Of a DNA stretch of 64,000 bases, positions 3,348 through 37,926 are shown in pieces. Within the stretch, counting starts at the first letter, position 1. Each line of letters opens with the position of its first letter. The position numbers and the translations under genes are program-made. The stretch comes from Opitutales bacterium. GTDB taxonomy: Bacteria; Verrucomicrobiota; Verrucomicrobiia; Opitutales; PNEW01. The notes under the pieces were generated by a model. The model had not been told where the DNA came from. It did no database searches and saw only the letters and a program-made list of their open reading frames with translations. The stretch spans positions 1,152,001 to 1,216,000 of the forward strand of contig CBDANS010000006.1 in assembly GCA_965197745.1 (NCBI GenBank). The letters run 5' to 3'.

Positions 3348-4665
3348 TGGTCGTGACCACGAAAACTGGTACACTTGAAAAGTTAGTCTGGGTAACCTAG
3401 AAAGGACTCAGACAATGAAAGGCAAAAGATACACAACTGAAGAGAAAATACGGATGCTGCGGCAGGCGGACAAAGGGAAAACGATCCTGGAAGCATGCCG
3501 CGAGAACAACATTAGCGAACAGACCTTCCACCGCTGGAAGCGTGAGTTTGGGATGATTGATGTCGACCAGGCCAAGCGGATGAAGGAACTCTTTGAAGGA
3601 GAACGCGCGGTTAAAACGGATGCTGGCGGACAAGATGCTGGGGATAGAGATCCTGCAGGAGACCCTCGAAAAAAAACTGTAAGCCCTGGGCACAAGCGGC
3701 AAGTGGCAGAGAGACTTGTGGCTCGGGGCCAGTGTTCGATGCGAGCGGGGTGCCGGTACTTTCGGCTGCACCGTTCCACCTATGCGTATAAGGCGAAGCA
3801 TCCGGATGCTTGGTTAATGAAACTGAAGGCGGCAGTAAGGCGGTTATCACGGCAATATGCCAGGTGGGGCTATCCGAAGATCACGAAGCTGTTGAAAGAC
3901 GAAGGCTGGGAGGTGGGTAAACGTCTCGTGCAAGGTCTACGACGCGAACTGGGCTTGGCGATCCCCCAACGCAAGCCAAGACGTCGGGGCAGGGGTGTTT
4001 CCACCGGGCTGCCGACCAAGGCCGAACATCCCGGCCATGTTTGGACCTGGGATTTTATCCACGATAAGACGGTCCGCGGTGGCAGTTTAAAAATGTTGAC
4101 CGTGCTCGATGAGTACACCCGCGAGTGTCGAGTGATCCATGTTGATCGCCATATCAATGCGGAAACGGTGCGCGGTATCATGCAAAAACTGCTTGCCCGT
4201 CATGGGCCGCCACAATATATTCGCAGTGACAACGGTTCCGTTCCGAGGAGCGAAGCGACGACATGCGAAGCCATTCATTGAAAAGGAATTGAGAGCCTGG
4301 CTAACTGCGATGAAAATCAAAACCCTCTATATCGAACCAGGAAGCCCTTGGCAGAACGGATACATCGAATCGTTGCATGCCCGTTTTCGCGAGGAGTGTT
4401 TAAACCGTGAACAGCTATGGACTTTGACCGAAGCCCGCGTGGTGATCGAGGACTGGCGCTGGCTTTACAATAATGTCCGACCCCACCGCAGCCTCGGCAA
4501 TATCACCCCACGGTGCTTCGCTGAAGACATTAATACCGAAGGCTTGGGCTCCATTCGGGCTACGCCCTCATTGCGCCCAAGCCTTGACTTCCTCTATCAA
4601 CTTAACTTCAACATTAACCTCTCCAGACTAACTCTCTCGGTGGACCAGTTTACGTAACCCGATCA
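3348..4665 (+). mobile_element. IS3-family element 'IS-A', copy 1 (1318 bp); transposase broken by a +1 T and a 31-nt insertion
   Basis: TG...CA ends with imperfect IRs (TGGTCGTGACCACGAAAACTGGTACAC / TGATCGGGTTACGTAAACTGGTCCAC), OrfA HTH at 3415, A8 slippage site near 3669, rve motifs WTWDF, SDNG, PWQNGYIES; no flanking direct repeat. Confidence 0.95.
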
Positions 4666-5021: not shown

Positions 5022-5272
5022 TGGTCGGGTTACGCAAACAAGTTTACTGTGAGAGTTAGTCTGGAGAGGTTAATGTTGAAGTTAAGTTGATAGAGGAAGT
5101 CAGGGCTTGGGCGCAATGAGGGCGTAGCCCGAATGGAGCCTGATCCATCGATATTGATGTTTACAGTGAAACGCTGTGCGGTGATATTGCCGAGGTTGCG
5201 GTGGGAGTCAGACATTATTGTAAAACAAGCGAAAATCCTCGAATATCACGCGTGCTTCAGTTATAGTGTACA
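5022..5272 (-). mobile_element. Right-end fragment of an IS-A relative, inverted relative to copy 1
   Basis: TGGTCGGGTTACGCAAAC IRR and degenerate 3' orfB (GSIRATPSLRPS). Confidence 0.85.
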
Positions 5273-10495: not shown

Positions 10496-10625
10496 TTAAT
10501 TAAGTTCATTATAATCTAATTACCAAATCGTGCAATATTCTGAAGAATAGCAGTCAGGTTCCAAAGGTTATATTCTGGCAGATGACTTTCCTGGCATTGG
10601 TGAAAAATTTTAAATTACGTTCGTG

Positions 10626-11215
10626 TGGAGTGACCGCCAAAAATCGTATCATTTACAGAGAGAGGTTATCCGGATAAACGGATAATCTCAATGAAAAGAA
10701 AAAGATATACAACAGAACAGACGATCGCAATACTACGGCAAGCCGATACTGGTAAAACCGTGCAGGAAGTCTGCCGTGGCAATAACTTAAGCGAACAGAC
10801 CATCTATCGCTGGGGTAAAAAGGATGGCAACTTGGAACTGGCCGATGCTCTAGCGCTATAAAGAGCTGTAAAAGAAAACACCGAGTTGAAGAAGCGAGCC
10901 GTAAAAGGTGCGGCTGAGAAAGGGTTGTGCTCGTTTTAGAGGGCTTGTGTTTAACCCCGTCTCAGTTGGTCAACATTCAGCTATCGGCCCAAGCAGATCA
11001 GTAAGAAAGTACAGCGGTTAGTCGAACGGATGGGAACCTTGTCCTGGGAACATCCTCGCTACGGTACCGGTGCATCCGTGCCTTGCTCGTCAAGGAAGGT
11101 TGGGCAACAAGCCGGAAGTTTGTCCAGGCACTACGACGATCAGAAGGGCTGCAGGTAGTAAGCCATCGAAAAAGCGTAGACCCCGTCAAGGGATCTCTAC
11201 AGGGTCGCCTACTAA
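10626..11215 (+). mobile_element. Degenerate IS3-family remnant 'IS-C'
   Basis: IRL TGGAGTGACCGCCAAAAATCGTATC, orfA MKRKRYTTEQ at 10691, decayed orfB (HPRYGTG...KEGW). Confidence 0.8.
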
Positions 11216-11372
11216 ATCATATGGAATTATATATAATTGTAACCAAAGGGATTTCGCCCTTCCAGTTTTCCGGTGTTTAATATGTCTCCACTGATCATCT
11301 TTTTTAGAGAGTGTATGCCTTACTTTGTAATATATCTGCTGAGGAAACCTTTAGTTTAATCTGAATTTAAAA

Positions 11373-16632: not shown

Positions 16633-17018
16633 TGGCGTGACCCAAAAAAAGTCGTATCATTTACAGTGAGAGGTTATCGGAATAAACAGATAACCTCAAT
16701 GAAAAGAAAAGATACACAACAGAACAGATCATAGCAATACTGCGGCAAGCCGATACCGGCAAAACGGTAGAGGAAATCTGCCGTGGTAACAACCTAAGCG
16801 AACAAACCTTCTATCGCTGGGGTAAAAAGGATGGCAACTTGGAGCTGGACGATGCGAAGCGCTATAAAAAGCTGGAAAAAGAAAACACCGAACTGAAGAA
16901 GCTGCTTGCTGATCAAATGCTCAAGAACCAGGTCTTGGAGGAAACGCTGTTAAAAAAGTGGTGAGCCCAAAGCAGAAGACGCGAGCAGTAAAAGATACGA
17001 TTTTTTTGGGTCACTCCA
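16633..17018 (+). mobile_element. Mini IS-C: frameshifted orfA between two inverted IRL-type repeats
   Basis: TGGCGTGACCCAAAAAAAGTCGTATC ... GATACGATTTTTTTGGGTCACTCCA; orfA about 16698-16964. Confidence 0.8.
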
Positions 17019-17180: not shown

Positions 17181-18521
17181 TGGTCGTGACCACGAAAACT
17201 GGTCCACTTGAAAAGTTAGTCTGGGACACCTGGAAAGGACTCAGACAATGAAAGGCAAAAGCTATACAACCGAAGAGAAGATACGGATGCTGCGGCAGGC
17301 GGACAAAGGGAAAACGATCCTGGAAGCATGCCGCGAGAACAACATAAGCGAACAGAGCTTCCACCGCTGGAAACGTGAGTTTGGGATGATTGATGTCAAC
17401 CAGGCCAAGCGGATGAAGGAACTCTTTGAAGGAGAACGCGCGGTTAAAACGGATGCTGGCGGACAAGCTGCTGGGGATAGAGATTGTGCAGGAGACCCTC
17501 GAAAAAAAATGGGAGATGCCGCTTACGCTCGGTAGTAAGCCCTGGGCACAAGCGGCAAGTGGCAGAGAGACTTGTGGCCCGGAGCCAGTGTTCGATGCGT
17601 GGAGCGTGCCGATACTTTCACCTGCACCGCTCCACCTATGCGTATGGGGCGAAGTATCCGGATGCCTGGCTAACGAAACTGAAAGCGGCAGTAAGGCGGT
17701 TATCACGGCAATACGCGAGGTGGGGCTATCCGAAGATCACGAAGCTGTTGAAGGACGAAGGCTGGCAGGTGGGTAAAGGTCTCGTGCAAGGTCTGCGACG
17801 TGAACTGGGCCTGGCGATCCCCCCACGCAAGCCAAGGCGTCGGCGCAGGGGTGTCTCCACCGGGCTGCCGACGAAGGCCGAACATCCCGACCCTGTTTGG
17901 ACCTGGGATTTTATTCACGATAAGACGGTCCGCGGTGGGAATCTCAAAATGCTGACCGTCCTTGACGGGTACACCCGCGAGTGCCGGGTGATCCATGTCG
18001 ATCGCCATATCAATGCGGAGAAGGTGCGCGGGGTCATGCAAAAACTGCTCGACCGTAATGGGCCGCCAAAATATATTCGCAGCGACAATGGATCGGTTCC
18101 GAGGAGCTAAGCGACGACATGCGAAGCCATTTATTGGAAGTGAATTGAGAGCCTGGCTAACTGCGATGAAAATCAATACCCTCTATATCCAACCAGCAAG
18201 CCCTTGGCAGAACGGATACATCGAATCGTTGCATGCCCGTTTTCGCGAGGAGTGTTTAAACCGTGAACAGCTATGGACTTTGACCAAAGCCCGCGTGGTG
18301 ATCGAAGATTGGCGCTGGCTTTACAATAATGTCCGACCCCACCGCAGCCTCGGCAATATCACCCCACGGTGCTTCGCTGAAGACATTAATACCAAAGGCT
18401 TGGGCTCCATTCGGGCTACGCCCTCATTGCGCCCAAGCCTTGACTTCCTCTACCAACTTAACTTCAACATTAACCTCTCCAGACTAACTCTCCCGGTGGA
18501 CCAGTTTGCGTAACCTGACCA
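17181..18521 (+). mobile_element. IS-A copy 3 (diverged), with an additional 23-nt insertion at the orfA stop
   Basis: Same IRs and ORFs as 3348..4665; many substitutions in the middle third. Confidence 0.93.
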
Positions 18522-28329: not shown

Positions 28330-28523
28330 ACTCAAAAATTCTTGGCCGATTCCTGACTGAACCTCATCAAAAAGTATTATTCCTGCCAATTCCTGGCAAA
28401 CATTTTGAGGCAAGGTCAGGAAAACAAAGGAAAATATAAATTATTATTGTATCGTTATTTAAATGTAACTATTTGTTAATAAGCAGCTTATAAGGCATTA
28501 TTGAGTCCCGTTCATAGTCGGTT
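28330..28523 (+). mobile_element. Element end with ATTCCT direct repeats terminating at TCGGTT (homologous to 45893..46086)
   Basis: About 190-bp alignment with 45893..46086 that stops right after CCGTTCATAGTCGGTT. Confidence 0.7.
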
Positions 28524-28826
28524 TCATCGAATCGTTCCATGCTCGTTTTCGCGAGGAGTGTTTAACCGTGAACAGTTATGGACTTTAACCGAAGCGCGCG
28601 TGGTAATCGAAGATTGGCGCTGGCTTTACAATCATGTCCGTCCCCACCGCAGCCCCGGCAATGTCACCCAACGGCACTTTGCTGAAGACATCAATGCCAA
28701 AGGCTTGGGCTCCATTCGGGCTACGCCCTCATTGCGCCCAAGCCTTGACTTCCTCTACCAACTTAACTTCAACTTAAACCTCTCCAGACTAACTCTCCCG
28801 GTGGACCAGTTTGCGTAATCCGACCA
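28519..28826 (+). mobile_element. 3' fragment of IS-A with its IRR
   Basis: (N)GFIES..NREQLWTLTEAR..GSIRATPSL, ends GTAATCCGACCA. Confidence 0.88.
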
Positions 28827-29210
28827 GACGCTCAAAGCCATCCAGCAGTGTCTGCGAGAGCACCCGATCGGCACGATTTATATCGACCATGACTGTCTCT
28901 GGCACAACGGACCTGCCGAAAACTTCAACCATCGCTTACGGGCTGAATGCCTTGAGCGCGAGTTGCTATACACCCTGACTGAATCCCGTGTGGTAATCGA
29001 ACCATAGCATCAGACCTACAATAATGAACATCCCCACAGTCGTTTAGGCTTTAAAAGCCCACTAGAGTTTGTCCGTTTCCTTTCCGATCTTGGCCGCGTT
29101 CGGGCTATGCTCTCACTTCGCCAAGATCTCTCCTATACAGCAATCCTAAAACCATTAACACCCGATAACTCTCTCACTTAATAATTGGTACGAAATACGG
29201 GATCCGATCA
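28827..29210 (+). mobile_element. 3' fragment of another IS3 element
   Basis: TIYIDHDCLWHNGPAENFNHRLRAECLERE..HPHSRLG, ends GGATCCGATCA. Confidence 0.75.
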
Positions 29211-36608: not shown

Positions 36609-37926
36609 TGGTCGTGACCACGAAAACTGGTACACTTGAAAAGTTAGTCTGGGTAACCTAGAAAGGACTCAGACAATGAAAGGCAAAAGATACACAACTG
36701 AAGAGAAAATACGGATGCTGCGGCAGGCGGACAAAGGGAAAACGATCCTGGAAGCATGCCGCGAGAACAACATTAGCGAACAGACTTTCCACCGCTGGAA
36801 GCGTGAGTTTGGGATGATTGATGTCGACCAGGCCAAGCGGATGAAGGAACTCTTTGAAGGAGAACGCGCGGTTAAAACGGATGCTGGCGGACAAGATGCT
36901 GGGGATAGAGATCCTGCAGGAGACCCTCGAAAAAAAACTGTAAGCCCTGGGCACAAGCGGCAAGTGGCAGAGAGACTTGTGGCTCGGGGCCAGTGTTCGA
37001 TGCGAGCGGGGTGCCGGTACTTTCGGCTGCACCGTTCCACCTATGCGTATAAGGCGAAGCATCCGGATGCTTGGTTAATGAAACTGAAGGCGGCAGTAAG
37101 GCGGTTATCACGGCAATATGCCAGGTGGGGCTATCCGAAGATCACGAAGCTGTTGAAAGACGAAGGCTGGGAGGTGGGTAAACGTCTCGTGCAAGGTCTA
37201 CGACGCGAACTGGGCTTGGCGATCCCCCAACGCAAGCCAAGACGTCGGGGCAGGGGTGTTTCCACCGGGCTGCCGACCAAGGCCGAACATCCCGGCCATG
37301 TTTGGACCTGGGATTTTATCCACGATAAGACGGTCCGCGGTGGCAGTTTAAAAATGTTGACCGTGCTCGATGAGTACACCCGCGAGTGTCGAGTGATCCA
37401 TGTTGATCGCCATATCAATGCGGAAACGGTGCGCGGTATCATGCAAAAACTGCTTGCCCGTCATGGGCCGCCACAATATATTCGCAGTGACAACGGTTCC
37501 GTTCCGAGGAGCGAAGCGACGACATGCGAAGCCATTCATTGAAAAGGAATTGAGAGCCTGGCTAACTGCGATGAAAATCAAAACCCTCTATATCGAACCA
37601 GGAAGCCCTTGGCAGAACGGATACATCGAATCGTTGCATGCCCGTTTTCGCGAGGAGTGTTTAAACCGTGAACAGCTATGGACTTTGACCGAAGCCCGCG
37701 TGGTGATCGAGGACTGGCGCTGGCTTTACAATAATGTCCGACCCCACCGCAGCCTCGGCAATATCACCCCACGGTGCTTCGCTGAAGACATTAATACCGA
37801 AGGCTTGGGCTCCATTCGGGCTACGCCCTCATTGCGCCCAAGCCTTGACTTCCTCTACCAACTTAACTTCAACATTAACCTCTCCAGACTAACTCTCTCG
37901 GTGGACCAGTTTACGTAACCCGATCA
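36609..37926 (+). mobile_element. IS-A copy 2, almost identical to 3348..4665
   Basis: Same IRs and identical translated transposase ORFs; no flanking direct repeat. Confidence 0.95.

Follow-up and report, generated by a model that had tools for sequence, protein, structure and literature searches.

A block of 34 nt interrupts the transposase gene of an IS3-family insertion sequence (IS), here called IS-A, in a stretch of 64,000 nt from the genome of an Opitutales bacterium. This stretch is referred to as the window; it corresponds to G000:C6:1152001-1216000, where G000 denotes the genome assembly (4.45 Mb, 7 contigs, 92% complete). The block is best explained as one of a family of inserted modules that are ultra-small (about 26-45 nt) and conserved in sequence. 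The reading favored here, with a probability of roughly 0.6, is that the module is a transposase-killing miniature insertion resembling repetitive extragenic palindromes (REPs) or small dispersed repeats (SDRs), that the dead IS copies were mobilized in trans, and that the insert was shuffled among them by conversion. Copies that are "broken yet spreading" would then be explained without recoding. The features of the window that bear on this reading are as follows.

3348..4664, plus strand: IS-A copy 1 (subfamily A1), an IS3-family element; left end at 3348-3369 and right end at 4642-4664, with end motifs located
3415..4281, plus strand: open reading frame (ORF) of 288 aa, covering the orfA HTH, an out-of-frame leucine-zipper region and N-terminal orfB; it stops 8 nt past the insert
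3592..3594, plus strand: TTT variant in orfA (CTC TTT GAA GGA G against canonical CTC GAG AAG GAG)
3669..3676, plus strand: A8 run at the end of orfA, the usual position of the IS3 -1 frameshift site and a putative one here
4139..4657, plus strand: ORF in the +1 frame, C-terminal orfB (rve_3, catalytic Glu region), in which the insert is read as FRGAKRRHAKP
4240..4273, plus strand: 34-nt mini-insert of the D2 (second Asp) type, occupying the Glu codon position of SDNGS-E-F and moving the remainder of orfB to the +1 frame
17181..18520, plus strand: IS-A copy 2, of the diverged subfamily A', about 91.8% identical to copy 1
17510..17535, minus strand: second mini-insert, of 26 nt and of the related CTACCGAGCG... 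subtype, antisense and immediately 3' of the A8 run, replacing CTG
18096..18129, plus strand: 34-nt mini-insert with G13T, which gives a frame-0 TAA and leaves the amino acid of the +1 frame the same
36609..37925, plus strand: IS-A copy 3 (subfamily A1)
37501..37534, plus strand: 34-nt mini-insert, identical to the one at 4240

The exact 34-mer (GTTCC...GCCA) is found at window positions 4240-4273 and 37501-37534 and, with one mismatch (G13T), at 18096-18129, just as the initial annotation had listed it; in a shuffle control, 0/100 shuffles matched. Frame 0 of copy 1 runs through ...PQYIRSDNGS into VPRSEATTCEAIH and a stop; the rest of orfB (FIEKELRAWL...PWQNGYIES...REECLN) is found in the +1 frame, and that frame stays open across the insert. 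We take the D of SDNG to be the second catalytic Asp of the IS3 transposase. As 34 nt stand where one codon is expected, the net gain is 31 nt. Pfam domains mirror this split: copy 1 matches HTH_Tnp_1, HTH_21, rve and rve_3, with the rve match ending at profile position 76/102 in the first ORF and rve_3 falling in the second. The TTT form of orfA is present in 3/3 window copies (3585-3601, 17418-17434 and 36846-36862); this change of GA to TTT joins the orfA start to the orfB frame, so that the leucine zipper is skipped and a -1 frameshift is no longer needed.

In the whole genome, allowing up to 3 mismatches to the 34-mer, the block was counted 73 times, always between SDNGS and F(I/x), and 51/73 copies are identical. 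The earlier description of the block as present "in all three copies" is accurate for the window and understates the genome. The 34-mer sits in at least two IS3 families (A and B), whose orfB proteins are about 45-50% identical; by flank, 34 copies are B-type (PSYIRSDNGS before and FIAHQVQQWL after the block), 22 A1-like, 9 A2, 3 A' and 5 others. Near-full IS-A copies number 41 by blastn (copy 1 has about 20 genome copies at 99.4-100% identity): the block is found in 36, and 5 are empty. Four of the empty copies belong to subfamily A2 and read GGT TCC GAG TTT ATT (GSEFI; SDNGSEF), and the fifth is a decayed copy. The 34-nt block is an insertion because the empty sister allele reads GSEFI, and this allele bears out the original proposal that the block replaces a Glu codon after SDNGS and frameshifts orfB. 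Apart from the block, filled and empty A2 copies are nearly identical across the whole element.

Insert-free alleles of IS-A, which the initial annotation had suggested looking for, are therefore at hand among these 5/41 empty copies. Two of the empty A2 copies are canonical intact IS3 elements, with an 88-aa orfA (HTH_Tnp_1), an A8 run and a 307-aa orfB. At the uninterrupted A2 locus L130, orfA occupies 168-434 (HTH_Tnp_1) and orfB 455-1378, with the A8 run between them; the uninterrupted A2 orfB scores 217.1 bits on the NCBIfam model NF033516 transpos_IS3 (cut-off 160) and also matches rve and rve_3. The match to this curated transposase model and the orfA/orfB layout with an A-rich run together identify the host element as a member of the IS3 family. 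The other two empty A2 copies have a 415-aa fused frame by way of orfA CTC TTT GAA. A2 and A1 are 94% identical and their ends are near-identical. A third-family IS3-type orfB was also noted (G000:C7:983386-984180, minus strand); it is 51% identical to A2 OrfB and forms a 320-aa open frame with no stop and no mini-insert.

The initial annotation described the block in IS-A; the module family was also found in other IS families and in tRNA-gene fragments. Family B carries related blocks in the same orientation as the 34-mer: 45 nt after the first catalytic Asp (between LID and YTRKC), in frame and containing a TGA; a block of +43 nt within PW-Q-NG; and 38 nt replacing the catalytic Glu codon (between RD and CLN). 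A 26-nt antisense relative follows the A8 run (the slippery site) in 6/41 A-family copies, including copy 2 of the window. Alignment of 21 distinct members gives the consensus G-T-W-C-C-G-A-G-G-A-R-C, a spacer, GYGACGACA, a second spacer, an invariant GCGAAGC, and a tail mostly ending in CCA (CCA in 11/21 aligned members; TCA, ACA or other in the remainder). Three filled/empty pairs, at the D2, Glu and slippery sites, share one junction rule: 5'-TWCC...CCA-3' replaces an AG that follows G or C, with net gains of +31, +35 and +23 nt, respectively. The PWQNG junction is ambiguous owing to an A run. Stated more generally, the dinucleotide displaced by a module after G or C is AG or AA. The target can be written as G^A(A/G)T; uninterrupted IS-A has 6 such sites on the sense strand, 3 of which are the two Asp sites and the Glu site. 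This "catalytic" pattern could arise by chance at about 1 in 20, aided by the D-E and S-E-F motifs. The orfA change from GA to TTT falls at a G^AG site as well, and might be the footprint of a lost module.

Structure offers less than sequence. The 34-mer does contain two GCGAAGC heptamers, as originally reported, but a stable hairpin of the whole block did not emerge: nearest-neighbor DNA folding gives -1.6 kcal/mol (z +1.35), and 189/200 shuffles were at least as stable. d(GCGAAGC) is specially stable as a DNA mini-hairpin, a property that the nearest-neighbor model does not capture. RNAalifold on the 21 members returned only 4 invariant inner-helix pairs and zero covariation, and an outer stem (GGAGCG/CGCCC versus GAACG/CGTTC) appears in single folds and is missing from the 34-mer and the first-Asp type. 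Several known classes of element were considered and set aside by eye: the defining motifs of a hammerhead, a bulge-helix-bulge intron, a CRISPR repeat, an integron attC site and an IS3-end mimic are all missing.

How, then, could interrupted copies have multiplied? In the favored reading, the module would be a secondary insertion that turned the Glu codon GAG into 34 nt plus a frame shift. Interrupted IS-A copies would be non-autonomous while keeping intact ends, and were most likely amplified with the transposase of a few uninterrupted copies. The insert would have been passed among copies, or lost again, through inter-copy conversion and recombination, as haplotype mosaics indicate. For the entry of the module, the best guess is a REP/IS200-like single-strand mechanism that would prefer G^A(A/G)T in exposed loops.

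Besides the spread of the module family, the filled and empty alleles and, further below, the RNA junction and the target preference, three sets of observations speak for this reading. First, dead copies do spread, because family B1 has been amplified to 14 copies that share a nonsense codon where B2 has Arg. Second, sources of transposase can be found beside the interrupted copies: intact A2 elements in this genome and, in the related genome G060, at least 9 A-like orfB copies without interruption, alongside 2 that are filled. Family B of G060 likewise has 2 uninterrupted B-like copies beside more than 40 with only the in-frame first-Asp insert (TGA). Trans-mobilization was one of two explanations that the initial annotation put forward, and it gains support from the intact A2 copies, the uninterrupted orfB copies of G060 and the amplification of B1. 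Third, the insert does not travel with a fixed background. The 13 A2 copies show all four combinations of insert or empty site with orfA GA or TTT, and a further pair of single-nucleotide polymorphisms is also mosaic. A chimeric IS3 copy (G000:C7:1673285-1674709) is family B to the left and family A to the right of the 34-nt block, and the identity between B1 and B2 is 75-80% on the left side of the D2 block and rises to 96-98% on its right side. The 34-nt block serves as a recombination joint between dissimilar IS families.

A number of findings weigh against trans-mobilization with passive shuffling. All 34/34 B copies of at least 1300 nt carry at least one module, with no uninterrupted B copy in the 92%-complete assembly; B1 and B2 nonetheless look recently amplified without such a copy in the assembly. 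B1 and B2 are 89.6% identical overall (75-80% between inserts), yet their inserts match at 79/79 positions. The B2 frames are pristine when the inserts are read through, with ratios of nonsynonymous to synonymous substitution (dN/dS) of 0.075 for orfA and 0.175 for orfB. The conservation of the inserts and the state of the B2 frames favor recent site-specific acquisition, or selection on the insert, over passive hitch-hiking. A given subtype turns up again at the same codon in IS3 lineages and host families that are far apart (for example, the Glu-site type in G171), a recurrence that homologous conversion would explain poorly. Most spread changes in the 34-mer (G13A, G13T, G28A, G28C) leave the +1-frame peptide unaltered, as might also be expected if the insert were translated. 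Finally, cross-mobilization of A1 by the A2 transposase is something we infer from 94% identity and near-identical ends.

Several of these points fit better with a driven, site-specific system, either a parasite of ISs or a host defense, that actively homes into empty catalytic-codon sites and kills the transposase, with one module subtype for each kind of site and hitch-hiking only secondary. This alternative is judged unlikely, though it is the more serious of those considered. The identity of the B1 and B2 inserts (79/79) against 10-25% flank divergence would follow from it, as would frames around the inserts that are pristine and under purifying selection, sites that are filled in 14/14 B1, 9/9 B2 and 22/22 A1-like copies, and the reappearance of a subtype at one codon across lineages and host families. 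Modules also occupy at least 6 distinct sites inside IS3 genes and none in the other ~98% of the genome except tRNA fragments. However, founder effects and conversion can also yield fixation, G060 retains its 9 or more empty IS-A copies beside 2 filled, and only 3/6 of the sense-strand GA(A/G)T sites of IS-A are used, a catalytic pattern that could be chance. In addition, no enzyme is linked to the modules. The sole candidate is a single-copy gene for a Y1 transposase resembling the REP-associated tyrosine transposases (RAYTs) at G000:C6:163149-163742 on the minus strand (L093/L124; 198 aa), which scores 66.6 bits on a Y1_Tnp / REP_Tyr_transpos-like model against a cut-off of 80. Neither a motif copy nor a notable inverted repeat lies beside it. 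The open frames of its homologs elsewhere in the Opitutales span about 300-350 aa, and the G000 gene may be truncated. Such homologs were found in 6/9 motif-positive and 53/192 motif-negative genomes, a weak co-occurrence among genomes that are not independent.

A bolder version of the homing idea, doubtful to a similar degree, would treat the modules as autonomous-looking "nano-elements" that home to single-stranded G^A(A/G)T in the codons of DDE catalytic residues and in the D- and T-loops of tRNA genes, with subtypes tuned to each site. If this were true, nano-elements would be a parasite or a defense that silences transposases and imposes a duplication on each tRNA gene it strikes, and they would move by a mechanism unlike that of described transposons, for instance by capture of a small RNA or DNA copy that ends in CCA, or with the help of an unknown HUH enzyme.

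The other explanation in the initial annotation, that the insert is removed or bypassed, has fared poorly. It would have filled copies still making transposase, by a ribosomal hop, a frameshift, RNA splicing or reversible DNA excision, with the block acting as a brake or switch. Some features are suggestive: the +1 frame is open through the 34-mer and its peptide is unchanged by the common variants, the insert has an AGG codon and a Shine-Dalgarno-like GAGGAG at its start, frame-0 CCG and CCA just before TTC could be read as take-off and landing triplets, and an IS5 copy of Lentimonas has a 39-nt in-frame open version. A further hint comes from RNA-library contigs. When IS-A copy 1 was compared with contigs from one probable DNA run and three RNA libraries (X17 spanned the 3' end only), RNA libraries X15 and X16, both from one study, were found to hold an insert-free A1-like form, with a joint from 4240 to 4274 and AG between (depths 22 and 8.5); one 848-nt insert-free contig has only 5 other differences over 375 nt. 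No insert-free form was seen in the X1 contigs, although contigs cannot show absence.

The junction itself argues otherwise. The insert-free form reads TCC GAG TTC, and a single excision cannot make it because, of the 20 junction letters, no more than 12 at the left and 6 at the right can be derived from the insert allele; the GAG cannot be obtained. The insert-free RNA form instead appears to be the ancestral allele, as found in relatives (G060) whose DNA has empty sites. X1 belongs to a different study than X15 and X16; the latter two libraries also hold insert-bearing contigs, including some with B-type flanks, as well as orfA forms without the extra T, which are present as DNA in G000. Nor could one frameshift rule serve for all inserts, a possibility that was ruled out: restoring the frame would take +1 in some sister inserts, -1/+2 in others, and elsewhere read-through of TGA or TAG. 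A bypass element would be expected to have matching take-off and landing triplets, with a stop or hungry codon following take-off, in each member. Such triplets show a near match in the 34-mer only (CCG...CCA), with none in the first-Asp and Glu-site inserts, and neither the consensus fold nor the 34-mer fold yielded a stable structure. Removal or bypass is accordingly rated improbable. One reservation counts against the preferred account: the insert-free RNA contigs come from samples other than that of the DNA run, which leaves a narrow opening for RNA-level repair.

Identical recurrence in so many copies might also be what a systematic consensus error copied into every IS would look like. 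That the block is an assembly or sequencing artifact is hardly credible, however: the same block occurs in independent assemblies (G032, G060 and the public records named below) and in contigs of independent sequencing runs, with a depth of about 95 in X1, and filled and empty alleles stand together in one assembly.

Beyond this genome, the exact block was found in 3/201 Opitutales genomes (G000, n=73; G032, n=12; G060, n=14) and the consensus motif in 9/201, with 0 for a reversed-pattern control. Public records hold a module at the same SDNG/DNGP codon of a Cerasicoccus IS3, another between DWRW and YNN of a Ruficoccus IS3, a third at the IS3 Glu site in another host family (G171), and the 39-nt in-frame, open insertion in an IS5-type gene of Lentimonas. 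Matches of a degenerate pattern in high-GC phyla (actinomycetes and others) were discounted, as they resemble chance hits in coding DNA.

The only copies in G000 outside ISs lie directly downstream of two tRNA genes, in a T-loop copy (GGTTCG^A(A)TCC) that extends to the CCA end; no module was found in other genes or intergenic DNA in the remaining ~98% of that genome. T-loop-type copies also stand beside tRNA-Ser, tRNA-Arg and other tRNA genes in Puniceicoccaceae, Pelagicoccus and Woeseiaceae, and D-loop copies (G(C/T)CG^AATG) upstream of tRNA-Ser genes carry the same module. In every case an intact tRNA gene adjoins an interrupted partial tRNA copy. The tRNA-linked unit is not a dispersed repeat, having no further copies in the genome, and an Rfam scan of the tRNA-linked copies returned only tRNAs and sub-threshold noise (RtT at 23.7 bits, threshold 45).

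These tRNA-linked copies have an architecture of their own. The units of G000:C6:355464-355700 (L031:965-1200) and G000:C5:236458-236611 (L032:659-812) are 70-150 nt long and lie downstream of tRNA-Asn and the second tRNA gene. Each unit forms a long hairpin whose 3' arm copies the tRNA from the T-loop to the CCA end and whose 5' arm is the complement of that arm. The T-loop holds the mini-insert, both arms vary in step with the neighboring tRNA, and the same architecture, often in tandem, is present in several other genera. At L059:1480-1704 and L101:1440-1715, in other Opitutales, the promoter and 5' part of tRNA-Ser are tandemly duplicated: the mini-insert splits the D-loop of the upstream copy and leaves the downstream one whole. 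This suggests that a hit on a tRNA gene survives only with a duplication, or itself creates one. At its 5' end the module has 9 nt (GTACCGAGG) that equal the end of the variable arm and the start of the T-stem of Opitutales tRNA-Ser (..GGTACCGAGGGTTCGAATCC..; L048:1700-1788, L059:1615-1704), a possible clue to the origin of the module. At L071:1470-1660, in Woeseiaceae, a tRNA-Arg gene without an encoded CCA is followed by an interrupted partial copy ending in ...CGGGCGCGCCA; this copy could be RNA-derived or could come from another genome.

Among described repeats, REPs are the closest in appearance. They are 20-40 bp long and marked by a GTAG tag or degenerate forms such as GTGG in Opitutus terrae, where intragenic REPs, known elsewhere too, are especially frequent (Di Nocera et al., 2013, PMC3733652). 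REPs and REPINs are described there as having a terminal GTAG or CGTC tag next to a 6-9 bp palindromic stem, as mostly extragenic and often arranged in inverted doublets, and as flanking the RAYT gene (PMC3733652; Bertels and Rainey, 2011, PMC3116915). The modules are similar in size, begin with a tetranucleotide-like tag, GT(A/T)C, have an imperfect hairpin with an unpaired tail fitting CCA (11/21 members), and share a genome with a RAYT-like gene. They differ from the REPs so described in lying, in G000, only within IS3 genes and tRNA-gene fragments rather than extragenically; in being single throughout, never inverted doublets; in a tag that is neither GTAG nor CGTC and is separated from any stem by 3 further bases; in a RAYT-like gene that is not flanked by modules; in a 34-mer hairpin no better than shuffles; and in recurring strongly at particular codons. 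By tag, location, doublets and RAYT gene, then, the modules do not behave as REPs.

Other systems share single traits with the modules. The SDRs of heterocystous cyanobacteria, which Elhai et al. reportedly described in 2008 (Genome Res), are mobile repeats of about 20-30 nt that enter mobile elements and genes, with an unknown transposase; the modules are likewise very small and sit inside mobile elements, and differ in phylum and sequence. Rickettsia palindromic elements (RPEs) lie in frame, in genes that probably remain functional, whereas most modules break the frame or add a stop, and do so in transposase genes. RPEs are also short palindromic repeats within protein-coding genes (PMC3733652). 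The modules resemble non-autonomous derivatives in that broken copies outnumber intact ones (36 versus 4-5 in family A; more than 40 versus 2 in family B of G060), and differ in that full-length elements are inactivated by a tiny insertion, not by internal deletion. Such non-autonomous IS derivatives, following the logic of miniature inverted-repeat transposable elements (MITEs), keep intact ends with a broken transposase and are mobilized in trans. In programmed translational bypass (phage T4 gene 60; the "byps" of Magnusiomyces mitochondria), inserts of 27-55 nt lie on the sense strand of coding sequence. The modules too are short sense-strand inserts in coding sequence, but they have no family-wide matched take-off and landing codons or common frame rule, and transcripts of the empty allele explain the RNA data. 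A literature search found no description of the module motif.

The modules are among the smallest site-recurrent inserted units seen in bacteria, and they come with clean filled and empty sites, which are rare for REP-like repeats, whose movement remains debated. They may shape IS load and tRNA loci in marine Opitutales, because they disable transposases, at or near catalytic codons, and mark tRNA-gene duplications. A practical consequence is that gene callers will split or miss many module-bearing transposase genes. Within its 64 kb the window holds 3 full IS copies and at least 5 partial ones, which makes it something of an IS graveyard; pieces of IS-A and IS-B are scattered at 5022-5258 (minus strand), 10623-11216, 16633-16996, 28519-28825 and 28990-29210.

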